NCBI GenBank assembly: GCA_964013405.1
Contig: CAXGWI010000030.1
Location: 1 to 28,501, forward strand
Origin: an uncultured Myxococcales bacterium
GTDB taxonomy: Bacteria > Myxococcota > UBA4151
Reading direction: 5' to 3'
Length of the DNA: 28,501 nt
The notes under the pieces are model-generated. The model saw nothing but the letters and a program-made list of their open reading frames with translations, was not told the origin of the DNA and made no database searches. Both the position numbers and the translations under genes were made by a program. Below, piece by piece: positions 1,175-25,669 of the stretch (the first letter of the stretch is position 1; each line of letters begins with the position of its first letter).

Positions 1175-4100
1175 GACAGTCGCCGCTGCAATAGGTCGAG
1201 CCCCCGGGCCAGTTCTTCGCTTGTCACATTGAGGGCCGGCACGATGGAGAGACCCGTGCGGCGTTGTTTGACGACCAATCCGGCCGCAGCCAACTCCTCG
1301 GTGAACTCTTGGGGGGCGTCGCAGGGGACGAAAGCCTGCAGACCGCAGGACGTCGCACCGGGCAGGCCCGCCATGGCCTCGGCGAGCTGATCGCTGCGCT
1401 GCTGGAGGTCTTCCCGCAAGCGATAGGCCCCCCGAAGGTGGTGATTACACCGGATCATACTCAGTTCATCACCATCCCAAGTACTGATGAGTTGCAGTGG
1501 TTTTTCGACCCAGGCCTCGTCGGCGCAAAAGACCAGGCCAAGCTGGCCTCCGGTGTACCACCAGACCTGGCTGGGCTGGAGCGGGGTGGCATCGCTAAGG
1601 AAGCAGTGCTGCGCCGAGCCGCGAAAGCCACCGGTGCTGGTCTCGACAACGCAAACCTTGAGGCCGGCCTGGCGTCGGGACTCGAGCCCTTCGAGGTAAG
1701 CGTCGCTAAGTTGGAGGCCGCTTTCCTCGCCAAAGATTTCGCAGACGAGGGCCAGGACTTTGCCTTCGTGGGCCTGGAGCGCTGTATCGAGCGCCTCTAA
1801 AGCCGCGGCGGTGCCCACCGCGGCTGGATGGGGAAGGCTGGGCCAATTAAAGTAACCCTCGCGCCCCCAACTGAGACTCCGGGCCGCAGCGGTGGTGTGA
1901 CCCACGTAGGTGCCTTCGAGACTGAAGACCACCTGGCCTTCCCGGTGATTGTACTTGAGGGCGCGTAAGCCCTTGTCGACCATCTCGTCTCGGCCGCTGG
2001 TGTAGAGAACGTGGTCACAGCCGCGGGGGCGGAGGGCCTGGAGCGTTTCGGCGAAGCGAATGGTATCTGGGGTGCTGAAGTTACACAGACTGAGTTTATT
2101 CGAGATGGCACCGCCGAGACTGCCCCGGTTGGCTGCTGCGACCAACGTGGGCGGGCGCGGACCCAGGGGGCGCTGCAGCCCATGGGCTAGATCGATGCCA
2201 TCGAAATCGCTGGTTTCTGGGATCTCGATCGCGCCGGGACGAAGGGGGATCCGGTAGTAGTCACTTTGGCCCTCCGGTTCGCCATATTGGCCATCCAGTC
2301 TTTGGACGAGGTGGGCGCCTACGCTCCGGTTGAGGGGCGCCATTTCCCGGGTCCCTCCCACTCGGTTGCGTCCGACCACCCAATCGAAACCCGCCTGATA
2401 GGCCGCATCGAGTTGGGCTGATTTGAGAACTCTTCCAAGGCCTTGCCCCCGGAAGCCCGCGCCCGCGAGCATCTCTAGGGAGTAGAAGCTCGTGCCTTGG
2501 CCCCAAGTCGGATCGCTGTTGCAGCCGTCGACGCCTGGAAAGCCCTCAAGCGCTGCGCCCATGGAGAAGGCAGCGAGTTCGCCGCCGGGCGCGAGGATGA
2601 TGTGACCGATGAATCCCGGCAATTCAGCGAAGCCTGTCAGTCCGGCTGGTGTTTCCCGCCGGGCTGGCTCGTAAGCTTCGGCTTCGAGAACCATGACCTG
2701 GTCCATAAGCTCGTGAAGTCTTGGCAGGCTGAGTTCCTCAAGGCGGAAGCCGCCGGGGAGACCGCTTCGGGGCGGACGCCATGTCCCCCGGGCTTGCCAG
2801 GGGCTCGGTGCTAAGGTCGCTACGGCTTCGGCGAAGGCCGCCGGGTCGTTGAAGCCACCGACGTCGTCGATCATCTGCTGAAGACTCTCACGCAGGGCGG
2901 TCATCAGATCGGTCCACTGGGCCTCGGTCATGGCTGCGTTGAGGCGAAAGCGGAGGGTGTTTTGCCCGGCGATGTAGGTGAGGTAGCCCCGCCAAAACCG
3001 CTCGCTAAGCATTCGGTTAATCACGGCCCCTGACGGCAGGTCGATGGCCCAAGCAAGACCTCTTCCGCGGACTCTTGTAATCAATCCAGCGGGAAGGCTT
3101 GATGCCAAATCATCGAGCCCTCTCGATGCAAACTCGGCAATAGCCTCCGTGGGTGTCGCTTCAAAGATCTCAAGGTGGGCGAGCCCACGACGGGCGCTTG
3201 CCGCCTGGACTTCCCCGGGTTCCGGATCAGGCCAACGGCTCAGCACCACACCCAATTGGGCCTTCTTCGCCAGGCTGACGAGATCCGGTGCGTCCGCTTC
3301 CCCGTTTTCATCTTCGAGGGCCAGCGCTGCGTGCCAGAACAACTCGCCAGAAAGGCCCATGCCCGTTTGGACTTCGTCGACGATGAGGGGCACATCATGG
3401 CGACGGCAGAGGGCCAGCAGGCCGCTCAGAAACCGGGAGCTCAGGTGATTGTCGCCGCCCTCGCCTTGCATCGCTTCGATCAGCACTGCGAAGACCGATT
3501 CTGAGGCGAGGGTCGCCTCGGCCTTGAGGAGGATCGCAACCTCCTCCTCGAAAAGGGCAGCAGCCGATGGATCGAGCGTGCCGATAAAATCCTGCCAAAG
3601 GGCGGGCTGACTCGAGGCAGTGATCGGCTTCGTTCGCCAGGCTTCGACCCAGCCTTCCGGCATGGGCGGGATGATCTCCGGCTCGATCTGGCGGGGGTAG
3701 GCCAGCCAGCAGGCTTCGAAGCCGGCCAGTTCAAAGGGTTCTCTTTTGACCGGATTCCAAGTGCCGTGGAGGGGGAGGAGGGTCCGGCCGTGGAAGCTGC
3801 CTTTGAAGGCCAGGAGTTTGTGCCCACCACGCCCTTGGCGGCGGGCGATGTGCAATGCTTTCTCATTCGCCTCGGCCCCCGAGTTTGCGAAGGCGACGTG
3901 GTCGAAATGACCATGGGCTCGAATCTTGAGGGCGTTGGCGAAATCCTCGAGAGCATCCACGGTCTCGTCGGTGGGGTCGGGATTGGCAATGGGCTCGTCG
4001 CCGAAGCGCCCCAAGGCCATGCTCTCGAGGACGGCCGGCGGGTTGAGCCCCCACGCATGGGTCGCGATCTGAGAAGATGCGTCGAAGAAGACCAGTGGTT

Positions 4101-4509
4101 CCTGGTCGATGGACGCGAGCAGGGGGCCCGAGGAGCGACCATGGTCGATGACCGCCGGTTTGCGCTCGTTCAGCGGCGAAAAAGCCATGTCCCCGTAGTA
4201 ACGTTGAAGCCACGCTTCTGAGCGCGGCATCGCCTTTGGGCTGTGGGGGCTCGTCACCGGGCGCAGTCGAAAAAGGCCCGGGCGCAGCTCGGCCAAGGCT
4301 TCGATTCGGCCCAGCAATCGGTCCAAATCCGCTGGGCTGGCCAACTCGGCTCGAGGGATCCGTGCGAGCCCTGCATTGTCCAGCAATCGCCCGGCCTCGG
4401 CCGATAGGCGATCCCACTGTAGAAGGAGGTCACCGCCTTGGGTTTCCACCAGTAGACCGTAGGCCTGACAGGCCTCGGCCAATTCCTGCTCAAGGATCAA
4501 CGAGTCCAT
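1171..4509 (-). CDS. Fusion protein (1112 aa): class-III PLP aminotransferase (lysine 6-aminotransferase/GABA-AT-like) + GNAT acetyltransferase + degenerate second aminotransferase domain
   Basis: Aminotransferase motifs FANSGAEANEKAL, FKGSFHGRT, EAMQGEGGD, DEVQTG (3361-3378) and DLVSLAKKAQ (PLP Lys at 3265-3267). GNAT motif A is FRGQGLG (~2434-2454). A C-terminal aminotransferase-like repeat follows. Start moved from 4803 to ATG 4509 because AGGAG lies 7 nt upstream and this removes the overlap with the divergent gene. Confidence 0.85.
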   Translation of the reverse strand: MDSLILEQELAEACQAYGLLVETQGGDLLLQWDRLSAEAGRLLDNAGLARIPRAELASPADLDRLLGRIEALAELRPGLFRLRPVTSPHSPKAMPRSEAWLQRYYGDMAFSPLNERKPAVIDHGRSSGPLLASIDQEPLVFFDASSQIATHAWGLNPPAVLESMALGRFGDEPIANPDPTDETVDALEDFANALKIRAHGHFDHVAFANSGAEANEKALHIARRQGRGGHKLLAFKGSFHGRTLLPLHGTWNPVKREPFELAGFEACWLAYPRQIEPEIIPPMPEGWVEAWRTKPITASSQPALWQDFIGTLDPSAAALFEEEVAILLKAEATLASESVFAVLIEAMQGEGGDNHLSSRFLSGLLALCRRHDVPLIVDEVQTGMGLSGELFWHAALALEDENGEADAPDLVSLAKKAQLGVVLSRWPDPEPGEVQAASARRGLAHLEIFEATPTEAIAEFASRGLDDLASSLPAGLITRVRGRGLAWAIDLPSGAVINRMLSERFWRGYLTYIAGQNTLRFRLNAAMTEAQWTDLMTALRESLQQMIDDVGGFNDPAAFAEAVATLAPSPWQARGTWRPPRSGLPGGFRLEELSLPRLHELMDQVMVLEAEAYEPARRETPAGLTGFAELPGFIGHIILAPGGELAAFSMGAALEGFPGVDGCNSDPTWGQGTSFYSLEMLAGAGFRGQGLGRVLKSAQLDAAYQAGFDWVVGRNRVGGTREMAPLNRSVGAHLVQRLDGQYGEPEGQSDYYRIPLRPGAIEIPETSDFDGIDLAHGLQRPLGPRPPTLVAAANRGSLGGAISNKLSLCNFSTPDTIRFAETLQALRPRGCDHVLYTSGRDEMVDKGLRALKYNHREGQVVFSLEGTYVGHTTAAARSLSWGREGYFNWPSLPHPAAVGTAAALEALDTALQAHEGKVLALVCEIFGEESGLQLSDAYLEGLESRRQAGLKVCVVETSTGGFRGSAQHCFLSDATPLQPSQVWWYTGGQLGLVFCADEAWVEKPLQLISTWDGDELSMIRCNHHLRGAYRLREDLQQRSDQLAEAMAGLPGATSCGLQAFVPCDAPQEFTEELAAAGLVVKQRRTGLSIVPALNVTSEELARGLDLLQRRLS

Positions 4510-4614
4510 GACCCTGCTCCTAGGATGGCCCGGCTTCCATGGAGGCCCAACTGCCCGTTGTCCAGCCCCAAGCACAAAATCACGGGGGGCTGGTGCAGTC
4601 GCGCCGGGAACCTG

Positions 4615-4620
4615 TATGAT
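4615..4620 (+). promoter_or_regulatory. Candidate sigma70-type -10 hexamer (TATGAT) for the Cys-rich lipoprotein gene
   Basis: TATGAT lies 19 nt upstream of ATG 4640, ahead of a GGAG RBS (4630-4633). No clear -35. Confidence 0.35.
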
Positions 4621-4639
4621 GGTCCGGCTGGAGTTCCCC

Positions 4640-6598
4640 ATGATACGTCGAGCCTTGCCACTTGTTTTGTTGTTGGGATGTGTGTCTGAACAGGTGGTCG
4701 TGCGCGAAAGGGCGGCCACCTGCGGCAACGGTGAAATCGAAGAGGGCGAGGCCTGTGATGACGGCAACAAGGAAAACACGGATCTGTGTACCAATGCCTG
4801 CACCTTTGGTCACTGCGGTGACGGGGTCACTCGGAGTGACGCACTTCCCGGCGACGAGCATTTTGAGATGTGCGACGACGGCAACGACGATGACAGCGAC
4901 GCCTGCCTAACCCATTGCATCCTCAGTCGTTGCGGTGATGGCTTTTTGCGGATGGACCTCGCCGAAGGTGAGGACGGCTATGAAGCCTGCGACGACGGCA
5001 ATGAAGATCATGGCGACGAATGTACCAACGATTGTCTCCCGGCTTTTTGCGGTGATGGGATCCGTCGCACCGATCGTCAGGAAGGCGAATCCGGGTTCGA
5101 AGCTTGCGATGATGGTAACGACTTCGACCTCGATGACTGCCTGAGCGATTGTCAGTTGCACCGCTGTGGTGATGGTGTCCTCGGGCCCGATGAAGGCTGC
5201 GACGACGGTAACGAGGACCCCACAGACGGTTGCATCAACTGCGTGCCCGCAGAGTGTGGTGACGGCGTCGTTCAGTTGGATGAGCTCTGCGATGACGGTA
5301 ATGTGGACGACACGGATGGTTGTCGGGCCAACTGTACCCCGGCCCGATGTGGCGACGGGGTGGTACGGGCCGATGATCTGGCCGAGGCCTGCGATGATGG
5401 CAATCAAGATGACCAGGATGGGTGCACGAGTGGCTGTGTCGTCGCCCGTTGTGGCGATGGGATTCAGCGGGTGGACCTTGAGCCCGGCGAGGAAGGCTTC
5501 GAGGCCTGCGACGACGGGAACGATGACTCGACCGATCACTGTCTAGAGTCCTGCGTCTTGGCCTTCTGTGGCGACGGCATCGTGCGGGCCGATGGCGAGG
5601 CAGAAGCCTGTGACGATGGCAACCAAGAGGACCTGGATGCCTGCACCAGCGCATGTGTTCCAGCTCGCTGTGGTGATGGCATTCAGCGAGCCGACCTGGA
5701 GCCTGGTGCTGAGGGCTTCGAGGAATGCGATGACGGTAACGATGATGCTTCCGATCACTGCTTGAACGGTTGTACCCTGGCCCGCTGCGGCGACGGTGAG
5801 ATCTGGGCGGGACGGGAGGAATGTGATGATGGTAATCAGATCAATGTGGATGACTGTACCAATGCTTGTCGCCTCGAGCGCTGCGGCGATGGTCAACTCC
5901 GGGAAGGCATCGAAGTCTGCGATGATGGCAACGCCCAGGACGATGACGCTTGCACCAATGAATGCCTGCCAGCTCGCTGCGGTGACGGCATTCTCCGCCT
6001 CGATCTTGCCGAGGGTGAAGCGGGGTTTGAGATTTGCGATGATGGCAACCGGTCTAACAACGACGACTGCTTGAACAACTGCCAAGAGGCGGTGTGTGGT
6101 GACGGTGTGATCCGACAGGATTTAGAGGCCGGCGAGTTTGGTTTTGAGGCCTGTGACGACGGGAACGGGTCGAACGAGGATGAATGTCTGGTGACCTGCC
6201 AGCCGGCCCGCTGCGGTGATGGTTTTGTGCGCGCGGGAATCGAACAGTGCGATGAGGGGGCCAACAACGGCAACGGGAATTGCCGGGCCGATTGCACCCT
6301 CAACTGGCAGCCGCCCGCGGTCGGGCAGCAGGGCTGTGACGGGCGTCTGGAAGGTGATTGTTGGCGGGTGTGTCGAGCCGATGCCAACAGTGCGTGGCTG
6401 GCGGCAAACAGTCGGGGGACGTACAACGCCCATCAAGCCTGCCAGTCCGTCGGCTATGCCCGGGCCAGTTCCAAAGGCGGGACCTGTGGCACGGTCTGTG
6501 GTTATTGTGGCAACGTGGGCAGGGAACATTACGACGGGGCCGGCGGGGACTTAAACCGCTTTCGCTACACCGTGCACTGGCGTTGCGAGCGTAATTAG
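4640..6598 (+). CDS. Lipoprotein (652 aa) with 15 Myxococcus-type cysteine-rich repeats (DUF4215-like) and a ~95-aa Cys-rich C-terminal tip domain
   Basis: Signal peptide and lipobox MIRRALPLVLLLG|C, then 15 CG[DN]G..E.CD[DE]G[NA]....C...C units. GGAG RBS 6 nt before ATG 4640, preferred over the track start at 4508. Confidence 0.9.
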   Translation: MIRRALPLVLLLGCVSEQVVVRERAATCGNGEIEEGEACDDGNKENTDLCTNACTFGHCGDGVTRSDALPGDEHFEMCDDGNDDDSDACLTHCILSRCGDGFLRMDLAEGEDGYEACDDGNEDHGDECTNDCLPAFCGDGIRRTDRQEGESGFEACDDGNDFDLDDCLSDCQLHRCGDGVLGPDEGCDDGNEDPTDGCINCVPAECGDGVVQLDELCDDGNVDDTDGCRANCTPARCGDGVVRADDLAEACDDGNQDDQDGCTSGCVVARCGDGIQRVDLEPGEEGFEACDDGNDDSTDHCLESCVLAFCGDGIVRADGEAEACDDGNQEDLDACTSACVPARCGDGIQRADLEPGAEGFEECDDGNDDASDHCLNGCTLARCGDGEIWAGREECDDGNQINVDDCTNACRLERCGDGQLREGIEVCDDGNAQDDDACTNECLPARCGDGILRLDLAEGEAGFEICDDGNRSNNDDCLNNCQEAVCGDGVIRQDLEAGEFGFEACDDGNGSNEDECLVTCQPARCGDGFVRAGIEQCDEGANNGNGNCRADCTLNWQPPAVGQQGCDGRLEGDCWRVCRADANSAWLAANSRGTYNAHQACQSVGYARASSKGGTCGTVCGYCGNVGREHYDGAGGDLNRFRYTVHWRCERN

Positions 6599-7218: not shown

Positions 7219-9228
7219 ATGGATCAACAGGGGCGTTTGGAGTTGATCGAGGCGGAAGCGGACGAGGGCGCCACTCCTGTTGGCGACGGGTCCGAGACCA
7301 GTCCGGCCCCTGTAGATTCCACCGACGCCGACTTGGGCGAGCGCGCAAACGACAGCCAGCCACCGGTCGCCGCAAAGCCGGCCCAGAGCCCGCCGAAGCG
7401 TCGGGCAAGTGCTCGGAGCATGGGGGGAAAGCATCGAGCGATCTCGATCAGCGAGTTCTTTACCAAGAACCGCCACCTTCTGGGCTTTGACAATCCAGCG
7501 AAAGCGCTTCTGACCACCGTCAGAGAGGCCGTCGACAACGCCCTCGACGCTTGTGAAGAGGCGGGCATCCTGCCGGATCTCACCGTCGAGATCGACCCGG
7601 TCGAAGGTTACGATGATCGCTACACGGTCCTCGTTCGTGACAATGGTCCGGGTATTATCAAAGCCCAGATCGGCAAGGTCTTCGGCAAGCTCCTCTATGG
7701 CAGCAAGTTTCACCGCTTGAAGCAAAGTCGCGGTCAGCAGGGGATCGGTATCTCCGCGGCCGGGATGTACGGCCAAATCACGACTGGACGCCCGGTGACT
7801 GTGATCAGTCGAACCGGAAAGCGCAGGCCAACCCATCGCATCGTGTTGCAAATCGATACACGCCGAAACGAACCCAAATACCTTAGTGAGGAACAACTGG
7901 AGGATTGGGATTGGGATCACGGCACTGAAATTATCCTGACCATCGCCGCAACCTTCAAGGGCGGTCGGCACAGTGTGGATGAGTACATGCGCCAGACGGC
8001 CATGAGTAATCCCCATGCCCATATCATTTACCGGAACCCGCGGGGGGTGGATTTGGTCTACGAGCGCCAAGTTCACGAGTTGCCCAAAGAGCCGGAAGAG
8101 ATCCAGCCCCATCCCCACGGTATTGAGCTCGGCATGCTCATGCGCATGCTGCGGGAGACAAAGCGCCGCAATCTCACGGACTTTTTGAAAGAGGAATTCT
8201 GTCGGGTCAGTCAGCGCAATGCGGAAGAGATCATCACAGAAACCGCCAAACGGGTTCCCGATCGGCAGCGCAACCAGATGCTACGGCGCAACCCCAAAGC
8301 GATGGAGCGCCATGAGGTCGAGGCCCTGTTCCAAGTCCTGGGCGAAACCCGGTTGCATAGCCCCCCGACCAACTGTCTGAGCCCCATTGGACACGAAGAC
8401 ATTCGCACGGGGCTTTTCGCCCTCTTCGACCCCGGCGACTACGATCCCAGTGAGTTCTTTGTCACCGGTGAAACTCGGCGGCCGGCTGTCTATCGGGGCA
8501 ATCCCTTCCAGGTCGAGGTGGGCATCGTCTACGGCAAGGGGCTGGAAGGGGACACCAGCGCAGAGGTCTATCGCTTTGCGAACCGGGTGCCTCTGCAGTA
8601 CCAGGCCGGAGCCTGTGCGATCACGAAAGCCGTGCAGTCCCTCAACTGGCGCCAATACAACCTGACCCAGCCTCGAGGCAGCTTTCCCGTCGCCCCCATG
8701 GTGGTCAGTGTTCACATCTCCAGTGCTTGGGTGCCCTACACCTCCGAGTCCAAGGAGGCCATCGCTCACTACCCAGAAATCCTGAGTGAACTACGTCTGG
8801 CTTTGCAGGTTTGTGCTCGCCGTTTGCAGCGTCATATCCGGCGGCAGCGTAAGCAGCGGGATGCGGAAAAGCGAAAGCAGTACCTCGAAAAGTACCTCGA
8901 TCCCATCAGTGAAGCCCTGCAAGAAATCCTCGGCTTCGATGAACAAGAAAAAGCCCGGGTTTCGGTGCAACTCACCGAGCTCATCGACCCCCAGGAGGTC
9001 GAGGAGGAATCGGAGGAGGAACTCGAGGTCGACGAAAACGTGGGTCGGCCAAGAGGGCGCACAGAAGTGGTGGCGGACCCGATTCCGGAGACAACTCACC
9101 TGGCTGAGGATGGGACCCCGGTAGGGACCGAGGAGGCTGTAGCGGAAGCAGAGACCGTTCCCGAGGCAGTGAAGCAGGAAGCGCAGGCGACGCTGGGGCT
9201 CGACCTGCCCGAAGGAGGTGAGGACTGA
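7219..9228 (+). CDS. top6B: DNA topoisomerase VI subunit B
   Basis: ISISEFF.KN...LGF; GHKL motifs EAVDNALDA, DNGPG, GSKFH..QSRGQQGIGISA and GTEI; transducer motifs RFANRVPL and SESKEAIA. Low-complexity N-terminal extension and acidic C-terminal tail. Confidence 0.97.
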   Translation: MDQQGRLELIEAEADEGATPVGDGSETSPAPVDSTDADLGERANDSQPPVAAKPAQSPPKRRASARSMGGKHRAISISEFFTKNRHLLGFDNPAKALLTTVREAVDNALDACEEAGILPDLTVEIDPVEGYDDRYTVLVRDNGPGIIKAQIGKVFGKLLYGSKFHRLKQSRGQQGIGISAAGMYGQITTGRPVTVISRTGKRRPTHRIVLQIDTRRNEPKYLSEEQLEDWDWDHGTEIILTIAATFKGGRHSVDEYMRQTAMSNPHAHIIYRNPRGVDLVYERQVHELPKEPEEIQPHPHGIELGMLMRMLRETKRRNLTDFLKEEFCRVSQRNAEEIITETAKRVPDRQRNQMLRRNPKAMERHEVEALFQVLGETRLHSPPTNCLSPIGHEDIRTGLFALFDPGDYDPSEFFVTGETRRPAVYRGNPFQVEVGIVYGKGLEGDTSAEVYRFANRVPLQYQAGACAITKAVQSLNWRQYNLTQPRGSFPVAPMVVSVHISSAWVPYTSESKEAIAHYPEILSELRLALQVCARRLQRHIRRQRKQRDAEKRKQYLEKYLDPISEALQEILGFDEQEKARVSVQLTELIDPQEVEEESEEELEVDENVGRPRGRTEVVADPIPETTHLAEDGTPVGTEEAVAEAETVPEAVKQEAQATLGLDLPEGGED

Positions 9229-10358
9229 TGGCTCGCAAAAAGACAATCGATCCGGAAAAAGCCGACGAAATCACCATCGATACGCTGGCAAAGCTGGCGA
9301 GGGGGATTCATCAGTCCATCAGTCGGGGCCGGTACCCAGAGCTCATCAGCCCCGTGCGCTCTCTTCAGAACGTGAAGGAGTTTCGTAAGCGGGTTGGCTA
9401 CCTTGAGATCGGTGAGAAGATCAAAACTCGGACCCTGTCGGTCAACACGGTCAAAACTTTTGCCCAGACCTTAAAGATGATGAGTCTCTCCAAGGACCTG
9501 GTTGAGACCAACGACTTCGCAACGAAGAGGGATGCTTATTACCAGTCCAAGAACTGGGGGCCGGCGGCTTTCAAGGATCAGCCTGAGTCGGACACGGTGA
9601 TGGATGATATCGAGGCGATGGTGAGTCGTTATGGTTTGGGGCGCGAGCATCTTCGCTACATTCCGGACGAGCACGGTGGCAGTGTCGCCGGTGCCCTCAA
9701 GGTCCACGATAAGGACCTTGAGACCGGTGAGCCCGAGGTGATCGATTGTACTCGCTTTGGTAGCGGCGCTTACTCCATCCCCAGTTGGGTGGAGCACCTA
9801 GACTTTGAGACGGACGCTGACTTTGTCCTGTGCATCGAAACCGCTGGTATGTTTCAGCGGCTTCAGAGCCACAAGTTCTGGCGCAAATACAACTGCATTC
9901 TTGTCAGCCTCGGCGGTGTGCCGAGTCGAGCCTGCCGCCGGTTCGTTCGGCGTCTGAGTGAACAGGCGAAGATCCCCGTTTACGCCTTTGTCGATTGCGA
10001 CCCCTATGGTGTCGCCAATATCTATCGGTCCCTGAAGGTTGGTAGCGGGAATGCGGCCCATGTGAACCATCTCTTCTGCGTCCCCCAGGCCCGTTTCCTC
10101 GGCGTGACACCCAAGGACATCGTCGATTACAAACTGCCGACCCATCCGCTCAAGGATCGGGATATTAAGCGGGCCAATGATGCCCTAGCCAACGACCCCT
10201 TCTTCCAGGCCCATCCCAAGTGGCAAAATGAGATTCAGCGATTGCTCGATATGGGCGTTCGCGCTGAGCAGCAGGCTCTTGCTCGTTGGGGCTTGAACTA
10301 CGTCATCGACGAATACCTCCCGGCGAAGCTGAAAAAGACCGGTAGTTTTCTCCCCTAG
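9228..10358 (+). CDS. top6A: DNA topoisomerase VI subunit A (Spo11-like)
   Basis: Catalytic-Tyr motif TKRDAYY, FxDQPESD, Toprim Glu motif IETAGMF, DxD motif DCDPYG, and AEQQAL. Translationally coupled to top6B through a TGATG overlap at 9226-9230. Confidence 0.97.
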   Translation: MARKKTIDPEKADEITIDTLAKLARGIHQSISRGRYPELISPVRSLQNVKEFRKRVGYLEIGEKIKTRTLSVNTVKTFAQTLKMMSLSKDLVETNDFATKRDAYYQSKNWGPAAFKDQPESDTVMDDIEAMVSRYGLGREHLRYIPDEHGGSVAGALKVHDKDLETGEPEVIDCTRFGSGAYSIPSWVEHLDFETDADFVLCIETAGMFQRLQSHKFWRKYNCILVSLGGVPSRACRRFVRRLSEQAKIPVYAFVDCDPYGVANIYRSLKVGSGNAAHVNHLFCVPQARFLGVTPKDIVDYKLPTHPLKDRDIKRANDALANDPFFQAHPKWQNEIQRLLDMGVRAEQQALARWGLNYVIDEYLPAKLKKTGSFLP

Positions 10359-10508: not shown

Positions 10509-13500
10509 ATGAAGAACCGACTCACAATCGCTCTAACCACAGTTCTGTTGGCAGCCTGTCCTTCCGATCCGGTCGACGACCCGCCACCGGTTATCGGTGG
10601 CGGTGGTGGTGGTGGTGCCGGGCCAGTCGAGCCTGTCGTGGAGCCTTGCCCGGAAGCCCAGGTGCGGGATCCCGTTGCGCAGACCTGTGTCGGCGCTCGG
10701 GGGGAAGGAGTGGTCCCGGCAGAGGGCTACTTCCGGACGGAGCATCCCTGGATCGCCCAGGCCCGTGGGAGCGCCGAATCAATTCGCTATCTCTTAGCCG
10801 ATGCGGCGGCCGGCGGTGACGGCCGGCTAGAAGCCCCGTTTCGAGATTGGGGTGCGGCCCTTGCTGGCTTGCAAGACGGTGATGATGTGACCTTTGTCAT
10901 CGGTCGAGGTGTCGTCGAGGGCGCGGCCTCCTTCAGCGGACTTGGGCGGGTCACCATCGTTGGTAACGCAGCCTCAGTCACCACGCTAAGCACCGAGGAT
11001 GAGCCTGTGATCGAAGCCGTCGGCACCGCTTGGTTGCGGGTATGGGGCGCCCGGCTCACTCGGACCGGCGAAGCCGTCGGTCCTGCTCTGCATCTCGAAG
11101 GTACAGGCCGAGTCCATCTTGCCCAGGTGCGTGTGGCAGCCACGGCCGGTGATGGTGTTCTTGCGACGGAGGCGGGCGCGGATGGCTTTATCCTCGGTTA
11201 CAGTACCTTTGAGAGCATCGCTGGGTCCGGGCTCAACGGTCAGGGCGCCCTGGGCTGGTGGACCGTCGATGAAACGGTGTTCCAAGGCCCCCTCGGTGCC
11301 GACGGGATCTCCCTCGTTGATTTCGGTGGTAGCCAGTTCCGAGTGTTTTCCTCTGAGTTTGCCGGCAACATTGGCGGTGACGGGATCTCATTGGTCGACT
11401 TCGGTGGTAGCCAGTTCCGGGTTTCTGAAAGCCGCTTCGCAGGGCCCATCGGTGGCGACGGCGTGTCTCTGGTGGACTTTGGCGGCAGCCAGTTCCGGGC
11501 GAGCGAGAATGTGTTCCAAGGGCCCCTTGGCGGAGATGGGATCTCCCTCGTCGACTTTGGCGGCAGCCAGTTCCGAAGCCATGACAATGTCTTTCAGGAG
11601 ATGGAGGGAAGTGCCCTTCACAGCGCCGGCGGTCAGGGGACGTTCTTGATGCAGAATGACCGAATGGAAGGCCCAATCGGTCGTGATGGTGTGACCATTA
11701 CCGGCTTCCAGGGTGAGGCGGTCACCATGAAGCAACTCCATCTCGGCGTCGTGAACCGCGTCGGGATTTCCGGCTCAGAATCGGCGGGCTGGTGGACGAT
11801 TGATGGGGCCAACCTTCAAGGCCCCATCGGCTTCGATGGAATCAGCCTTCGTGGGGTGGGTGAGGACAACGCTCGGGTCAAGATCTCCAGTGTCGAGGCT
11901 GAAGGCATCGGTCGAGTCGGTATGCGTTTGACCGAAGGTTTGGGCTGGTGGACCGTGGATGAAACCGTGTTTCGCGGCACGGGCGGAACCGGTGTGATGG
12001 CCCAGGGCTTTACGGCGAACAGCAGCCTTGAAATGAGCGGCGTAAGCGTGACTGGAGCCCATGGCGTAGGCATGGTCTTCGATGCCAATTCGGCAGCTAT
12101 CGAGGTGGCAGACGCGGAGATCTCTGAAACCGTCGGCCAAGAACAAGGTGGGGCCAACAGGCCCGGCCCCGTGCTTGGTTACGGTCTGCTGGTGATGGAC
12201 AGCGCCCACCTCGCTGTCTTGCGGAGTCAATTCATTCGCAATGCCGGCAGCGGTCTTCTCATCGACCTCCGGGGCTGGGGTGCCCGGCGTGATCGACCCG
12301 ACCTCAGTGGTGAAGCAACCATCCGCTTGGACACGGTCGAGATCGAAAAAGAGCCAGGCGCAGCCGAGAACCAACCGGAAGCGCAAGCGCAGAATGTTCC
12401 GGAGGGCGTGAGTATCGCCGGTATGGGCGATCGACCGCCGGGTCCTGAGGCACCGGCCCAAGACCTGCCGCAGCCGATGGAGGCAGAAGAAGCCGGTTGT
12501 GGCGATGGCGTCGTCGATGCGGCCATTGAGGAATGTGACGATGGCAATCAAGATGATGGCGATGGCTGCACCCGATTGTGCAAGGCCAATATTTGTGGCG
12601 ATGGCATCGTCAACCGGGGCGTTGAGGACTGTGACGATGGGAATGACATCAATCACGGCGATGGCTGTTCCAATGTCTGTGTCGCACCCGACCGAATCCC
12701 TTATGATGGGGGCGTCTTCAATATGGGGAATGTGGGCGTCGATGCCCGACCGTTCAACGTGACCGTGCAACCCTTCAGCCTCTCCCGGACGGAGGTCACT
12801 TGTGACGAATACAGTGACTATCTTCTTGAGACAGGAGCGGCTTTCGATGTGATGAAGGACGGTTCCGTCGAAGATAACCTTGAAGCAAACGTGCCTTCTT
12901 GGAATATGCTTTACGGTGGTGATTGGCAGGGCTCATGTGCGCTGCCGGACGGCTGGCCTCATGCGAGATACAGTGCCAACGCACCGGCTGAAGACGGGTA
13001 CATCGTACCGCTCGGGACACCGGCAGCAAGCCAAGAATTGGATTTGCCCGGGGCCGATACATTGCCGATGGACACGGGCGGCAATGGCGCCACTCGGCCT
13101 TTCGAGTATTATTACTTAGTGCGGCGATTCTATACGGGGCGAGTGGTTTCTGGGGCTTATCTCGATATCTACCATCCCAACGCCGCGATCGCTGTCTACG
13201 TGGGCGGTCAATTGGTCCACACCTCGGGTATGGCGAGCCCGGCCTGTGACAGTGCGCTGACTCAAGTCAGCCCAGAGGGGGCGACTCGGGTGCTGCTCAA
13301 ACAAGCTGACCTCAATAATTTGAATCACTACTATCGCTACCACCAATACGTCGCTGTGATGCTGAGGCCCCTGAATCAGGAGGTGGACGAGCTCGGTTTC
13401 GCCATGCGCTTTCGTGCCTGGGGTGCGAGCGTTGGTGAGAACCCCTTACCGTGGATGGATGGGGCCCATCACCGGTTGAGCGCTGCCGGCCAGGCGTTGT

Positions 13501-14048
13501 GTGGTGCGGGCGACTACCCCATGGCGCTGGACTGGGACAAAGCCCGGGAATTCTGTCGCTGGTATGGCGGCGACCTGCCCACTGCAGCCCAATGGGAGTA
13601 CGCTGCCCGTAATGAGGGCGAGCAGACCGCGTACCCGTGGGGTGACCGACCGACGATCGATCGGTCGCCAGCTGGGGACAGTCAAGCCTGTCAGTACGCC
13701 AACAGCAGTGGGCCGGGCGGGCGTAATGCCTGCGAGCACGTGGGCCTAAGGACGCCGGTTTGCGCCTATCCTCTTGGTCATACCGAGCAGGGAGCCTGCG
13801 ATATGATCGGCAATCTCGCCGAGTGGACCCTTGATGGTGAAGGGGCCATTGCTGCCCATGGTGAAGGTGGTGATCGGCCCCAGCGCACCCCCCATTTCTG
13901 GGACCCCGAGGCTACCTTTACGGTTCGGGGGGGATCGATGGTCAAGACCCGGTCTGCTCATACGGCGACCAGCGAGTTCCGTCGACGTGATGGCGACAAT
14001 GATGATGCCGCCTACGACGTGGGTTTCCGCTGTGCATGGCCCCGTTGA
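10509..14048 (+). CDS. Large lipoprotein (1179 aa): parallel beta-helix repeats + 2 Cys-rich repeats + FGE-sulfatase (SUMF1/CLec-fold) domain interrupted by a jelly-roll insert; paralogue A
   Basis: Lipobox LLAA|C and beta-helix cap motif GDGRLEAPF. Contains 4x DG[IV]SLVDFGGSQF and 2x CGDG/CDDGN. FGE motifs: FNMG, RTEVT, W..A..FC.W.GGDLPT.AQWEYAAR, YPWG, G.CDMIGNL.EW, RGGS, GFRC. Confidence 0.88.
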   Translation: MKNRLTIALTTVLLAACPSDPVDDPPPVIGGGGGGGAGPVEPVVEPCPEAQVRDPVAQTCVGARGEGVVPAEGYFRTEHPWIAQARGSAESIRYLLADAAAGGDGRLEAPFRDWGAALAGLQDGDDVTFVIGRGVVEGAASFSGLGRVTIVGNAASVTTLSTEDEPVIEAVGTAWLRVWGARLTRTGEAVGPALHLEGTGRVHLAQVRVAATAGDGVLATEAGADGFILGYSTFESIAGSGLNGQGALGWWTVDETVFQGPLGADGISLVDFGGSQFRVFSSEFAGNIGGDGISLVDFGGSQFRVSESRFAGPIGGDGVSLVDFGGSQFRASENVFQGPLGGDGISLVDFGGSQFRSHDNVFQEMEGSALHSAGGQGTFLMQNDRMEGPIGRDGVTITGFQGEAVTMKQLHLGVVNRVGISGSESAGWWTIDGANLQGPIGFDGISLRGVGEDNARVKISSVEAEGIGRVGMRLTEGLGWWTVDETVFRGTGGTGVMAQGFTANSSLEMSGVSVTGAHGVGMVFDANSAAIEVADAEISETVGQEQGGANRPGPVLGYGLLVMDSAHLAVLRSQFIRNAGSGLLIDLRGWGARRDRPDLSGEATIRLDTVEIEKEPGAAENQPEAQAQNVPEGVSIAGMGDRPPGPEAPAQDLPQPMEAEEAGCGDGVVDAAIEECDDGNQDDGDGCTRLCKANICGDGIVNRGVEDCDDGNDINHGDGCSNVCVAPDRIPYDGGVFNMGNVGVDARPFNVTVQPFSLSRTEVTCDEYSDYLLETGAAFDVMKDGSVEDNLEANVPSWNMLYGGDWQGSCALPDGWPHARYSANAPAEDGYIVPLGTPAASQELDLPGADTLPMDTGGNGATRPFEYYYLVRRFYTGRVVSGAYLDIYHPNAAIAVYVGGQLVHTSGMASPACDSALTQVSPEGATRVLLKQADLNNLNHYYRYHQYVAVMLRPLNQEVDELGFAMRFRAWGASVGENPLPWMDGAHHRLSAAGQALCGAGDYPMALDWDKAREFCRWYGGDLPTAAQWEYAARNEGEQTAYPWGDRPTIDRSPAGDSQACQYANSSGPGGRNACEHVGLRTPVCAYPLGHTEQGACDMIGNLAEWTLDGEGAIAAHGEGGDRPQRTPHFWDPEATFTVRGGSMVKTRSAHTATSEFRRRDGDNDDAAYDVGFRCAWPR
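11301..11576 (+). repeat. Four in-frame coding repeats (78-nt period) encoding DG[IV]SLVDFGGSQFR
   Basis: Units start at 11301, 11379, 11457 and 11535. Differences within the core are almost all synonymous. Confidence 0.95.
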
Positions 14049-14090
14049 TTCCGGCTTTACGGGCCGTTTGAACCCTAGGGAGTATTGGGG

Positions 14091-17000
14091 GTGATCATTC
14101 GAAGGATAGCTGTTCCGTGGGTCTGCATCCTGCTCATCGCAGGTTGCTCGGGCGAATCTGCGGACCTGGCCCTTGGGGGCGAGTCCGGTCGAGCTCCTGG
14201 TGAGTTACCTGGAGGCACCAATGGCATAGATGTTGGTGACCTGCCTGCGGACCCCTTTGATGAGCCCTGCGTCGAGCCTCTGGTGCATGATCCGATCGCT
14301 GGCTACTGCGTGCCCGCTCGCGGTGAAGGGCTCAGCCCCCAGGAGGGGCCTTTTCGAACCCGCCATCGGTGGTTGCAGGAAGCGCAGTCAGCGCAGGAGG
14401 TGATCCGATACGTCGTCCCCGGTCTTCCTCCGGGTGGGACGGGCGCGCCAGAATCACCTCTAGGTAGTTGGGCCGGAGCGACCGATAACCTTCCTGCCGG
14501 CGCTGATGTCACATTCCTTGTGGGCCGAGGGCGGGTCGACGGGACCCTCGAGCTCTCGGGACTGGGCCGCGTGTCAGTGATTGGAAACGCGGCTGCGGTC
14601 ACAGCCCTGCGAGCCGATAATGGGCCCGTTTTGGCTGCGGAGGAAGTGGGCGCGTTGCGACTCTGGGGCCTGGCGATTGAGCGAGTGGGGGATGATCCGG
14701 GGCCTGCGTTGGAGCTTGCGACGACGGAAGCATTTCTGGCGGGCCAGATTCGGCTCGTCTCCAGCAGTGGTGATGGCATCGAGTTCCGCGGGGGCGGTGA
14801 CGGTGGCCTTCAGATCAGCCACAGCCATTTCTTGGCGATCGCTGGCGATGGTCTGCGAGGGGTGGAAGCACTCGGCGGTTGGACCATCGATGAGACCGTC
14901 TTCCAGGGGCCTTTCGGTGGTGATGGGATCTCTTTGGTCGACTTCGGTGGTAGCCAGTTTCGCTTCTCAAACAGCGAGTTGAACAACATCGGTGGTGATG
15001 GGATTTCGTTTGTCGATTTCGGCGGCAGTCAGTTCCTCGTGGACAATGGCACGTTGAATTCAGTGTCTGGTGACGGCATCTCCTTGGTCGATTTCGGTGG
15101 CAGCCAGTTTCGGGTGATGAACAGTCAGTTCGAAGGCCCCATCGGCGGCGATGGGATTTCGTTGGTCGATTTCGGCGGCAGCCAATTTCGCAGTCATCAA
15201 AACCGTTTTGCCAGCATCGATGGCAGCGGGATCTCGAGCCGCGGCGGGTCCGGCACATTCACGATTGAGGAAAGCCAGATGGATGGCCCGATCGGTCGCG
15301 ATGGAATCACGATCGTCGGCTTCTCCGGTGCGCGGGCCCATATTGGATCGATCGAGATGAGAACCATTGGACGGGTCGGTATTTCAGTGCGGGATGCGCT
15401 GGGCTGGTGGACTGTCGATGGTGCCAATTTTCACGGCCCAATCGGCTTTGATGGCCTGCAGTTCATCGGGGTTGGAGAGACCGGCAAACGGGTGAAGCTC
15501 ACCAATCTTGGTGGTGATGGGGTCGGCCGTGTCGGGATGCGGTTACTCGATGGCCTGGGCTGGTGGACCGTAGACGGTGCGAACTTTCGCAACACCGGTC
15601 AAATGGCGGTTCAGATCTCGGGCTTCTCGCCAGAAGCGGCCTTCGACCTTCATCGGCTGTCTGTTGAGGGGGCGAGCGGAATCGGTGTCATGATCGACAG
15701 TACAGCGGCGTCGATCGAGTTGAGCGACAGTGACATCGACGAGACGGCAACCCGGCCCCAGGGGGGGGCTCAAGCACCGGGCCCGGCATTGGGCTACGGG
15801 CTTCTCGCCAAGGACGTGGGCCAACTGGCTGTGCGTCGCAGTCAATTTCGCGGCAATGGAGGCACAGCCATCGTTGTGGACTGTCGTGGTTGGGGCGCCC
15901 GGCGGCGGCGGGGCGATCTCCAGGGCAGTGTTCGCTTGGAACTGGACGATCTCGTGGTCGAAGACAGTGAGGGGACACCGGTGGGTGGCTCCGCGATGAG
16001 AACACAGAATATGCCCGCTGGAACCGAGGTCTGGGTCGACGGAACCCTTCGCCGGGAGCAGTACGAGGACGCGGCCCAAGAAGAGATGCCTGAGCTCGAG
16101 ATGGGGCTGCCGGGCTGTGGCGATGGTGTCGTCGACGAGATGATCGAGGAATGTGATGATGGTAACGACAGCGACAACGACGCTTGCACGGCGAACTGTT
16201 TTCTCAACGTCTGCGGTGATGGATTACATCACGTAGGCTTCGAGGAATGTGATGATGGCAATGAAGTGCATCACGGCGACGGTTGCAACAATGACTGTGA
16301 AGCGGGGGACCGGGTTGTTATTCCTGGCGGCTCTTTCGTCTATGGAACGATATCCAATGCCTTCAATGGGCTGCCGGAAACCCAGGTGGATGGCTTTTTC
16401 ATGAACCGCCATGAGGTGACCTGCGAAGAATTTGGTGCGTACTGGTCCGCCTCCGGTTCGACGCGTGTGGTGCTTTCAGACGGTAACAATGGAGCTGGCG
16501 ACCATTCTTGGTATTTGGATCCGCATGAGGGTGTGGTTCCGACGGGCTGGCCCTTTGCGACATTCGATGCTGCCAGTCCGCCGGAGGATGCCGCGTCGAT
16601 GCTTTCGACGCCTGCGCAAGAAGCAGTCTTCCCGCAGAATAACGTTGTGGCTGGCGAGGGTGAACGGTGGGAAAAATATTATCTTTTCCGTCGCTTTCGA
16701 CACAACCGGCGCATTAGTGGTGGTTTTATCGATGTCCACCACCCTGGGGCTGCTATCCGGGTGTATTTAGCGGGGCAATTGATTCACCAAGCCGGTTGGC
16801 CCGAGGCCGGCGATAACTCGCCTTTGGTCCCCGAATCGACCAATGGCATGAGCCGAATTTTACTGAAGGATGAAGCCATTGAGCACCACAATGACCATTG
16901 GGGTGCATGGAAGTACATCGCCATCGAACTGAGGCCCTTCCCTCCGGGCGACGGCCATGATCAACTCGCTTTTGCGCTGACTTATAAGGTTTGGAATCAG

Positions 17001-17684
17001 ACCTTCCAAACGCCTCGCAAGCCTTGGTTTAACCAACGTGGGGAGCACATCAGCACAGGGCACGGACAGTTGCTCTGTGGTGATCCCCGGTGGCCTGTTG
17101 CGATGGATTGGCACAAGGCGCGAGATTATTGTCGCTGGCACGGTGGGGATCTCCCCACGGAGGCGCAGTGGGAATATGCCGCTCGGAACCTGGGTCAAAA
17201 CATCAAATATCCGTGGGGCAACTTACCTCGGATCACGGCAAGCTATAGTGGTGGGCAAGTGGCTTGTGAATACGCCCATACAAGTGCTGACACTGCCCCT
17301 CAGAACTGCCCAGACTCCGGCATCAAACTTGAGGTCTGCTCGCGGCCATTGGGCAACACCGAGCAAGGCCTGTGTGATATGATCGGAAACATGTGGGAAT
17401 GGACTCTGGATGGCTACAGCGAAGGACATCGGGATGGCATCGATAATGATCGAGATGGTCATGTCGATGAGCGTAATGAACTCCTTGTGCCCAGCGCATC
17501 GGGTTTGCCACTGACGAGCCGCCCTTCATTCTGGTCCGGCAGCAGTTTGTATGTTGCCCGAGGCAGTTCCTCTGCCAATACGATTGGGTCGTACACGACC
17601 GGCCGATTGGGCCGGACGGCAACTTGGTTTCAGGGCCAAGCCAGTGTCGACTTCGGTTTCCGATGCGCGTGGCCTATCGAGTAG
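14091..17684 (+). CDS. Large lipoprotein (~1197 aa) with the same architecture as 10509-14048; paralogue B
   Basis: Lipobox LIAG|C. Colinear with paralogue A throughout (ARGEG..P.EG.FRT.H.W, DFGGSQF x4, RGWGARR, CGDG x2, FGE motifs ending GFRCAWP). GTG 14091 is preferred over TTG 14085 because GGGAG lies 8 nt upstream. Confidence 0.88.
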   Translation: MIIRRIAVPWVCILLIAGCSGESADLALGGESGRAPGELPGGTNGIDVGDLPADPFDEPCVEPLVHDPIAGYCVPARGEGLSPQEGPFRTRHRWLQEAQSAQEVIRYVVPGLPPGGTGAPESPLGSWAGATDNLPAGADVTFLVGRGRVDGTLELSGLGRVSVIGNAAAVTALRADNGPVLAAEEVGALRLWGLAIERVGDDPGPALELATTEAFLAGQIRLVSSSGDGIEFRGGGDGGLQISHSHFLAIAGDGLRGVEALGGWTIDETVFQGPFGGDGISLVDFGGSQFRFSNSELNNIGGDGISFVDFGGSQFLVDNGTLNSVSGDGISLVDFGGSQFRVMNSQFEGPIGGDGISLVDFGGSQFRSHQNRFASIDGSGISSRGGSGTFTIEESQMDGPIGRDGITIVGFSGARAHIGSIEMRTIGRVGISVRDALGWWTVDGANFHGPIGFDGLQFIGVGETGKRVKLTNLGGDGVGRVGMRLLDGLGWWTVDGANFRNTGQMAVQISGFSPEAAFDLHRLSVEGASGIGVMIDSTAASIELSDSDIDETATRPQGGAQAPGPALGYGLLAKDVGQLAVRRSQFRGNGGTAIVVDCRGWGARRRRGDLQGSVRLELDDLVVEDSEGTPVGGSAMRTQNMPAGTEVWVDGTLRREQYEDAAQEEMPELEMGLPGCGDGVVDEMIEECDDGNDSDNDACTANCFLNVCGDGLHHVGFEECDDGNEVHHGDGCNNDCEAGDRVVIPGGSFVYGTISNAFNGLPETQVDGFFMNRHEVTCEEFGAYWSASGSTRVVLSDGNNGAGDHSWYLDPHEGVVPTGWPFATFDAASPPEDAASMLSTPAQEAVFPQNNVVAGEGERWEKYYLFRRFRHNRRISGGFIDVHHPGAAIRVYLAGQLIHQAGWPEAGDNSPLVPESTNGMSRILLKDEAIEHHNDHWGAWKYIAIELRPFPPGDGHDQLAFALTYKVWNQTFQTPRKPWFNQRGEHISTGHGQLLCGDPRWPVAMDWHKARDYCRWHGGDLPTEAQWEYAARNLGQNIKYPWGNLPRITASYSGGQVACEYAHTSADTAPQNCPDSGIKLEVCSRPLGNTEQGLCDMIGNMWEWTLDGYSEGHRDGIDNDRDGHVDERNELLVPSASGLPLTSRPSFWSGSSLYVARGSSSANTIGSYTTGRLGRTATWFQGQASVDFGFRCAWPIE
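14922..15191 (+). repeat. Four in-frame coding repeats (75/75/78-nt period) encoding DGIS[LF]VDFGGSQF
   Basis: Units start at 14922, 14997, 15072 and 15150. Confidence 0.95.
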
Positions 17685-24427: not shown

Positions 24428-25575
24428 AGGGGCTTGGGGGGCGCGATAAAGCGCCGGGGCCGAAAAATATCCAGAGCGCAGTTCGGGGCCTCACCTCGAG
24501 CGATCTGAGCGATGGCCTCTCCGAGCCCTGGCACCATTTTAAAGCCGTGCCCGCTGAGCCCTGCGGCCACCACCAAGCCCGGCTCGATCTCACCGACCAA
24601 AGGATGGAGATCTGGGCTCAAGGTGTACATGCACACCGCATGGTGGTTCAGTTGCTCAGTCTCCACATCGGGGAGATGCTTCTTGAGGAAAGCCTCCACG
24701 GGATCTCGGTCGTAGCTGTGGAGGTTGCGGTCGAGTTGCAGTGGATCGCTGACGTCTAAGCCCGCACTGTGACGAGCGGCCTTGAAGCCCATGCGGTCTC
24801 GGGTGGGAAAGCCGTAAAAGACGCCCCCTGGCAACTCGAAGAGCCAGACGGGAAAGCCACCGCGTTCAAGATACCGGGGCCCCGCTTCGTACCAAAGGAG
24901 CGGCTTGCGCTTCACCTGCAGGTGCTGGGCGAAGGTCTTTGGCAGGAGTTGGGAGGCCCAGGCCCCTGGGCAGAGCACCAATCGGGTGCATGTGAAGCGC
25001 TCCTCACCAAAAACCACCTCAAAGCCATCTCGGTGGGTGCCCCAGTGTGTGACTGCCGCACCCCAGCGTAGGTTGGCACCGGCGTTCGTGGCTTGGTCAA
25101 ACCAAGCCCGAACACAGTCTTCGACCAAGAGGTAACCACCATCTGGTTCGTAAACGCCCACGAGATTCGCCTCGTCGAGTCCCTTGATGCCGGGAAAGCG
25201 GGCTTCGACTTCTTGACCGGAGAGGGCTTCCACCTTCAGTTGGTGTTGGGCTGCGGCCCGTAAAACACCGGGAACGACTTCGCCGAACTCAGGTCCCAAC
25301 TCCAACACACCGCTTTGGAAAAAGAGCGATTGGCTGGTCTTCTCTTCGAGGGAAAACCAGCGCTCATAACTGCGATGGAGCAGGGGGACGTAATCGGGAT
25401 GTTCAAAGTATGCTTTACGAATCACCCGGGTGGCGCCGTGGGAGCTGCCCCGATCATGGCCGGGCTGAAAGCGGTCGAGGCCTAGGGTGCTTAGACCTGC
25501 AGCAGCCAGATCATGGCTGACCACCGTGCCCAGTCCACCCAGCCCCACGACGATCGCATCCCAATGTTGGGTCAT
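24424..25575 (-). CDS. solA: N-methyl-L-tryptophan oxidase / monomeric sarcosine oxidase family flavoenzyme (383 aa)
   Basis: Rossmann motif [23 protein letters not shown], covalent-FAD Cys motif VCMYT and GLSGHGFK. Start moved from 25863 to ATG 25575 (AGGAG upstream). Exact substrate unknown. Confidence 0.88.
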
Positions 25576-25619
25576 CTTGCCGGTTCTCCTACGGGCCCTC
25601 TGCCTGCGTGGGCCAGGGA

Positions 25620-25649
25620 TTGGCAAGGGGGCTCGGCCTTGGCTAGCCT
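25620..25649 (+). promoter_or_regulatory. Candidate sigma70-type promoter (TTGGCA-N18-TAGCCT) for the second Cys-rich lipoprotein
   Basis: Intergenic, ending 20 nt before ATG 25670 and upstream of a GGAGG RBS. Confidence 0.35.
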
Positions 25650-25669
25650 GTGCCCCACGGAGGTCGTCC

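Follow-up and report, generated by a model that had tools for sequence, protein, structure and literature searches.

In this study, we analysed a tandem pair of genes, A and B, on a stretch of 28,501 nucleotides (nt; hereafter the window) from an uncultured Myxococcota bacterium (contig CAXGWI010000030.1 of assembly GCA_964013405.1). Gene A (10509..14048, + strand) is an open reading frame (ORF) of 1179 amino acids (aa), gene B (14085..17684, + strand) is one of 1199 aa when read from a TTG start, and the two encode paralogous predicted lipoproteins with a beta-helix shaft and a C-terminal head. We consider it probable that A and B are modular adhesins or receptors of the cell surface, whose ligands would be glycans or proteins carried by particles, prey or kin. 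In addition, short peptide words on the shaft are near-identical (92-100%) across the repeats and unlinked paralogues of one genome, yet shift jointly between species.

Organization and integrity of the gene pair

The gap between A and B measures 36-42 nt on the + strand, depending on the start of B, for which database protein P0004 uses the alternative GTG at 14091. The two proteins are 47% identical and colinear from their lipobox-like cysteines (Cys17 and Cys21) through the final GFRCAWP, in agreement with an earlier note on this DNA that had described two adjacent colinear paralogues about 40 nt apart. Mis-assembly, which that note had named as a concern, is unlikely, since the sister species of the same genus (genome G001) has the same tandem pair with identical neighbours, and a 426-nt contig from a marine DNA sequencing run bridges the gap; both ORFs are intact rather than fragments. 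Pieces of A and of B were also present in two marine RNA-library assemblies, a finding that concerns the presence of the sequence alone and not its transcription.

Domain architecture of A and B

A hydrophobic signal peptide followed by a lipobox Cys was recognized by inspection in A, B and their homologues, reading LAA-C (Cys17) in A (10509..10559, +) and IAG-C (Cys21) in B (14085..14147, +). The family alignment and the shaft model of A delimit an N-cap (10644..10886, +) with a Cys47/Cys60 pair and an HPW motif common in the family. The AlphaFold model of the A shaft, built for residues 53-660 with an alignment of 23 homologues, predicted a right-handed parallel beta-helix of ~510 aa (10887..12419, +; approximately residues 127-637), with a mean predicted local distance difference test (pLDDT) of 91.9 and a predicted template modelling score (pTM) of 0.89. 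Two Myxococcus Cys-rich acidic repeats (TIGR02232/DUF4215) come next in A (12495..12680, +), as they do in B (16113..16298, +). Pfam matched Beta_helix, DUF4215 and, in two stretches, FGE-sulfatase in both proteins, and NCBIfam matched two TIGR02232 repeats in each; of the features proposed earlier for each protein, the beta-helix of about 500 aa was thus recovered by Pfam and the A model and the two Cys-rich repeats by both libraries. The function of the DUF4215 repeat is stated as unknown in the accessible part of one source (10.1101/2023.03.06.531300). By a simple pattern, such repeats occur in 152 of the 3,041 called genes of the window's own genome (G000, 94% complete), with 1,172 repeats altogether. 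Two of the proteins in the window itself bear long Myxococcus Cys-rich repeat arrays, one (4508-6598) with a C-terminal head of no assigned type and the other (25487-28147) with a C-terminal fibrinogen-like GGGW domain.

Foldseek searches with the A shaft returned generic beta-helices alone, the best with an E of 7e-5, template modelling (TM) scores <=0.45 and identity <=14%, and its fold neighbours include GH55, PL6, GH87 and AlgG. These neighbours, the attached domain of sugar-binding type, the amylase and GT4 gene downstream, and the invariant D586 of A with the nearly invariant W590 close to it would all fit a shaft that is itself a polysaccharide lyase or hydrolase, with the jelly roll and the CLec head as its binding modules. 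Such an enzyme is nevertheless quite improbable, given the remoteness of the matches and the fact that the columns invariant across 23 shafts are only G, P, G and that one D. Moreover, the turns in the word-bearing rungs of the model are 3-4 residues long, the long loops that form a cleft are absent, and heads swap freely on this shaft.

The head has the fold shared by formylglycine-generating enzyme (FGE) and C-type lectin (CLec) domains. According to the head model and the fold alignment, the head of A begins with the N-terminal part of this fold (12681..12836, +), continues with a jelly roll resembling galactose-binding domains, of the GH2 sugar-binding type (12837..13427, +), and closes with the C-terminal part of the fold (13428..14045, +). 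Comparison with A placed the N-terminal part in B at 16299..16457 (+) and the insert, 35% identical to that of A and assigned its fold from A, at 16458..17000 (+), while Pfam and identity placed the C-terminal part, whose core is 90% identical to the G001 orthologue, at 17001..17681 (+). The FGE family PF03781 scored above the Pfam cut-off. When the A head model (456 aa, 34 sequences in the alignment) was aligned by fold (VIA-align), it matched human pFGE with Z 22.0, PorK with 21.2, TvpA with 20.2, Mtd with 13.0 and the Bdellovibrio Bd2740 tip with 7.8, so that binding proteins (TvpA, Mtd and Bd2740) are among its matches alongside enzymes; its top Foldseek matches were PorK ring lipoproteins, PorKN entries included. 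In FGE, the catalytic CxxxxC copper-binding pair follows an RGGS motif. On alignment with human FGE, neither A nor B has a Cys from residue 1097 up to the closing GFRC, so the catalytic pair is absent, and the earlier reading of an FGE-sulfatase fold without the formylglycine-generating pair holds.

The insert comprises ~200 aa (approximately residues 777-973 of A) and splits the head. Within the whole-head model, VIA-align superposed it on numerous GH2 domains and on 8qqh (best Z 9.8, with 133 residues aligned at an rmsd of 3.1), and ESM Atlas gave the same jelly-roll leads with a score of 0.89; sequence searches of Pfam and PDB with the A insert gave no match. Among the best 120 of 144 head homologues, P0012 alone was seen aligned across the insert (90% coverage), one row reached 71% and the other 118 reached <=50%. 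Elsewhere in G000, two convergent FGE-domain genes were found at G000:C173:5033-6462, and FGE matches number 14 genome-wide.

Distribution of the family and exchange of heads

The shaft turned up in 6 of 41 genomes, namely G000 and all five genomes of the same family (G001-G005), and in 0 of the 35 others of the phylum Myxococcota; among these 41 genomes, it is confined to one Myxococcota family. G000 has five further shaft genes (one each on contigs C125, C27 and C15 and two on C135). Of 12 shaft homologues scanned in G001-G005, 11 matched RCC1 families in Pfam and the twelfth was headless. A profile search of 1.84 billion representatives was examined over its best 150 rows, among which 30 passed a motif filter as family members: 18 with RCC1-like motifs, one with FGE, and the remainder fragments or headless, several being proteins already counted in G001-G005. 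The remaining 120 rows look mostly like generic long beta-helix proteins, as judged by length and many matched stretches. Within the family, one and the same shaft is combined with an FGE head or an RCC1 propeller, or lacks a head. The five FGE-headed genes formed a single clade (support 100/99), and the tree placed the A/B duplication before the split of G000 and G001.

Tandem pairs occur at 7 of the 15 loci examined, and at six loci a lone gene lies clear of the contig ends. No neighbour gene was common to non-orthologous family loci, sharing being restricted to orthologous ones. We found no publication describing a family with this architecture, supplementary tables lying outside the literature search; together with the Pfam, NCBIfam and Foldseek results, this upholds the earlier impression that the combination belongs to no recognized described family. 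Two family members have arrangements of their own. L042:738-6323 (G000:C125) encodes 1861 aa with a long N-terminal Cys-rich repeat array, a shaft and an RCC1 head. At L045:1907-6717 (G000:C15), and likewise at L025, a headless shaft gene overlaps an upstream gene for a Cys-repeat protein, an arrangement conserved in the sister genome; the two L045 genes could be a split version of the module.

Divergence of the heads and putative function

Amino acid identity between A and B reached 0.70 in the word rungs, 0.37-0.52 in the remaining shaft and 0.51 in the FGE core; the insert and the FGE C-terminus had lower values (0.35 and 0.32) and are among the most diverged folded parts. The earlier picture of a conserved shaft and a diverged tip is therefore supported in part. 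Between G000 and G001, the B head retained identities of 0.90 (FGE core) and 0.75 (insert), compared with 0.55 and 0.54 for the A head.

We also considered whether A and B are remote targets of the diversity-generating retroelement (DGR) of G000. Both proteins do end in an FGE/CLec fold close to that of TvpA, and contig C5 carries a CLec-like target gene, a reverse transcriptase (RT), an Avd-like gene (39 bits vs a cut-off of 40) and a template repeat (TR) (L002, G000:C5:123-2700). The TR, however, matched the adjacent target (C5:910-1005; 96 nt, 13 mismatches, 10 of them at A) and nothing on the window's contig, among the matches listed at E up to 10. We accordingly rejected targeting of A and B by this TR and consider them extremely improbable as targets of the genome's DGR, although a second DGR may lie outside the assembly (94% complete). 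The C5 target itself carries one Cys-rich repeat before its head. A second reverse transcriptase of 422 aa, possibly of the defence type, lies beside two uncharacterized ORFs at L001 (G000:C131:4562-5830).

Returning to the adhesin or receptor that we prefer, the earlier proposal of such a surface role is consistent with a non-catalytic FGE/CLec head (Z 22 to pFGE, Z 20 to TvpA) on a predicted lipoprotein. A predicted lipid anchor would hold A and B on the cell surface, where they would be displayed. The beta-helix rod and the Cys-rich repeats, the latter possibly a disulfide-bonded hinge, would hold out the head, with a reach set by the number of rungs, and the head with its jelly roll would do the binding and set its specificity. 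A and B may bind different ligands, since the B head is far more conserved between species than the A head. Several points weigh against this proposal. The role is predicted from sequence and models, and the A head model is of moderate quality (pLDDT 71.6, with 78 of 456 residues <50). As the head matches PorK best and the shaft glycan-active enzymes, fold by itself picks no function, nor is the modelled jelly-roll fold on its own a demonstration of sugar binding. Finally, an adhesin role alone leaves unexplained the word matches across genes and their occurrence in a DUF4476 protein, both described below.

Genome-specific words on the shaft

Each shaft repeats short words of 9-18 residues on several rungs. 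A has four 26-aa rungs (11244..11603, +) with the word DG(I/V)SLVDFGGSQF, preceded by GWWTVDETVF, and B has four rungs with the same word (14865..15218, +). Word copies were chosen by regular expressions, which left out degenerate copies such as the first rungs of G002 C135a and G005 C16a. In word 1, DG(I/V)SxVDFGGSQF, x was Leu in 10 of 11 copies in G000, distributed over three genes of which one is unlinked, and Val in 8 of 9 copies in G001; P0003 had Ile together with GGTQF in 5 of 5. Word 2 read GSWTVQDN in 12 of 12 copies in G000 vs GSWTLEDN in 9 of 9 in G001. Word 3 read LGPLGGEGVF in G002 (8 of 8), LGPLGGDGVF in G004 (7 of 7) and LGPISGEGVF in both G003 (4 of 4) and G005 (5 of 5). The WWTVD word of A and B, in turn, varies within a gene. 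G002 and G005 have a further word, GVRGPLS, which was observed in different paralogues (L033, L026, L027, L032) both in N-cap rungs and in rungs of the mid-shaft, with 10 pattern hits in all, nine exact and one near match. Like the jelly-roll identity of the insert and the wider RCC1-headed family, the genome-specific words had not figured in the earlier note.

The words behaved differently from their surroundings. The nine residues after word 1 matched the orthologous rung at an identity of 0.74-0.75 and sister rungs at 0.15-0.43, whereas word 1 of the same genes was 0.95-1.00 identical within a gene and 0.87-0.90 between orthologues. A survey of protein repeats reported, in the part available, that divergence is universally faster within a protein than between orthologues (PMC5120217); the rung flanks obey this rule and the words invert it. 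Furthermore, for three word sets (20, 21 and 16 copies), amino acid identity between genes was 0.951, 0.920 and 1.000 in one genome vs 0.894, 0.797 and 0.858 across genomes. Where residues were shared, codon identity was 0.487, 0.511 and 0.440 vs 0.437, 0.493 and 0.430, compared with ~0.39-0.41 expected from the codon use of G000. The within-genome excess in codon identity was +0.058, +0.028 and +0.028, with permutation p values of 0.005, 0.044 and 0.16 that overstate the case, as word copies are not independent; this small excess fits old conversion or shared codon bias alike. In trees of the distal shaft, monophyly of the genes with a common genome-specific word was rejected (approximately unbiased (AU) tests, p = 1.9e-20, 3.6e-5, 4.3e-56 and 1.1e-8). 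The tested groups came from word tallies but were defined only once a first tree was at hand, and one word falls within the region aligned for the A/B rows. A 7-mer screen of the 3,041 genes revealed no proteome-wide sharing of peptide words, yielding mostly contig-end overlaps and known motifs.

One gene outside the family carries the words. It encodes a 175-aa protein, divergent from ileS (G000:C5:28567-29094, that is L046:1068-1595; also L035:7614-8141), with a signal-like N-terminus, a Pro/Lys-rich linker and a DUF4476 fold (ESM Atlas score 0.90, TM 0.73). Its C-terminus reads GWWAVDGANF, a 19-residue linker and IVDFGGSQL, a tail which, judged from its residues, makes up one whole rung of the family's beta-helix, its turn enlarged by an insert. 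When one mismatch was allowed, no other gene outside the family among the 3,041 contained either word. The pattern DFGGSQ had 10 matches in G001, nine in A and B and one in the DUF4476 gene (reversed control 0). Both words are kept in five of six homologues of this protein, which retains Ile at the site that has switched in A and B, to Leu in G000 and to Val in G001. No word-bearing counterpart was found in G002-G005 (completeness 59-93%), where two DUF4476 genes lack the words, and the words of the sister genus were found in family genes alone.

Origin of the words

As the most conservative cause of the words we propose that rungs and paralogues long ago underwent gene conversion in short tracts under strong purifying selection, with synonymous sites decayed since and one rung captured by the DUF4476 gene; we infer this rather than regard it as established, and would put it at a little under an even chance. 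It agrees with the small excess in codon identity that persists within genomes and with the Ser codon families common to word copies. Because orthologous genes are at synonymous saturation (0.38-0.44 vs 0.37-0.38 expected), a conversion that closely followed speciation would now be hard to see. Fungal NWD genes are known to exchange repeats between loci; as far as the accessible text goes, the WD40 units of Podospora agree both inside a locus and across the loci of a genome, much like the rung words (PMC1805685). Whole repeat units are exchanged there according to the same text, whereas here the words of 9-18 residues alone are matched, with codons near random. Since the flanks follow the orthologous rung, conversion would have to be confined to tracts of 30-50 nt, interspersed with codon differences. 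Conversion must also account for residues that differ between species while being nearly invariant inside each, and leaves unexplained the retention of both words in most DUF4476 homologues.

The discrepancy between amino acid and codon identity would fit a trans-acting reader, that is, a chaperone, export factor, modifying enzyme or lattice partner that recognizes the words as linear motifs, so that their copies co-evolve. The 175-aa DUF4476 protein would then be another client, a decoy or an adaptor. Within a genome, amino acid identity is higher while codon identity is nearly the same (0.44-0.51 vs 0.43-0.49), the AU tests reject a clade of the word-sharing genes, one 10-mer occurs twice in tandem at different rung positions with 30 of 70 codons identical, and both words recur in a protein of DUF4476 fold. 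Such a reader nevertheless seems doubtful to us. No gene for it was found, neighbours being shared between orthologous loci only, which counts against it, as do the Ile retained by the DUF4476 protein, the failure to find this carrier in the sister genus, and the genus g1, which has two different word sets at once.

The words may also reflect assembly, as in the two-component receptor or adhesin suggested earlier, with A and B joined as an obligate heterodimer or arranged in a lateral array through like-on-like packing of the shaft faces that bear the words. Tandem pairs at nearly half of the loci, whose partners share words, would fit, and oligomerization of the FGE fold is seen in PorK rings (PorKN entries in Foldseek) and in the FGE-pFGE heterodimer. 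We hold this unlikely in view of the six loci with a single gene and of words that lie also on alternate rungs and in a helical protein. Like-on-like stacking inside one helix, for its part, cannot account for words that match between unlinked genes, sit on every other rung or recur in a helical protein. In a broader form, the words would be a species-specific peptide password, read in trans or like on like and rewritten jointly without homogenization of the DNA, with the DUF4476 protein as a member; we consider this a speculative possibility with the balance tilted against it.

Genomic surroundings

The gene order at the locus runs from topoisomerase VI B and A through genes A and B to an ORF for a small membrane protein, followed by genes for a GT4 glycosyltransferase and an amylase, and G001 keeps this order. 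No promoter or terminator motif was found upstream of A. The topoisomerase VI B and A genes (archaeal-type type IIB; window 7219-10358) lie directly upstream of A. Further upstream, a long class-III aminotransferase fusion (1171-4803, -) is convergent with an AAT/C45 peptidase-like gene (86-1174, +); the middle part of the fusion, going by its motif, seems to be GNAT-like.

Comparison with known systems

Treponema TvpA, Bordetella phage Mtd and human pFGE/SUMF2 share the head fold with A and also lack the catalytic Cys pair. In A and B, however, the fold is split by a jelly roll of 200 aa, sits on a beta-helix rod and is unmatched by the DGR template of the genome. TvpA is described, in the text available, as an FGE-type CLec without FGE activity that is thought to bind (PMC5758913). 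The MAT fibres of Bdellovibrio resemble the A/B family in being paralogous surface proteins of ~1,000 aa with a shared base and exchangeable adhesive tips, among which is a CLec tip, that of Bd2740 (PMC10769870, accessible part). The same part describes MATs as trimeric fibres, 13 of 21 with an S74 chaperone, whereas A and B have a lipobox and a single-chain parallel beta-helix model; Pfam found no S74 family in A or B, and the NS74 members of the MATs likewise lack it. By analogy, A and B likely work like MAT fibres and TvpA, although we do not assign them to either group.

The myxobacterial kin-recognition receptor TraA is another surface protein that combines Cys-rich repeats with a lectin-like distal domain, as far as its description was available (PMC3325183). 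Its polarity there is the opposite one, with an N-terminal PA14 and a C-terminal MYXO-CTERM where A and B end in an FGE fold, and it has the TIGR04201 repeat and no beta-helix, in contrast to TIGR02232 and a beta-helix in A and B. Neither Pfam nor NCBIfam matched PA14, TIGR04201 or MYXO-CTERM in A or B, the presence of two of these models in the library being unchecked, and no neighbour of the OmpA-type TraB was found among the window ORFs scanned. PorK/GldK of the type IX secretion system are, like A and B, lipoproteins with an interrupted FGE fold, and they gave the best Foldseek matches to the head. A and B have 700 extra residues and are not from Bacteroidota; membership in PorK/GldK was rejected, as TIGR03525 scored 46.1 and 43.3 bits vs a cut-off of 350 (NCBIfam). 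The adhesins pertactin and Ag43 have a long parallel beta-helix rod with short turns as in A and B, at 13-14% identity; they differ from A and B, which have a predicted N-terminal lipid anchor and an FGE fold at the C-terminus, where Pfam found no autotransporter beta-barrel.

Taken together, A and B belong to a lineage-restricted and undescribed family of modular surface proteins in uncultured marine Myxococcota, whose CLec head split by a jelly roll was seen in this group only, and they are concrete candidates for attachment to particles or prey. Their architecture is a variation on modular surface adhesin families already known. Stranger than the architecture are the genome-specific words, which an unrelated protein has captured as well, and, if the words are read in trans, they would represent protein-level concerted evolution across unlinked and even non-homologous genes, against the general rule reported for repeats.

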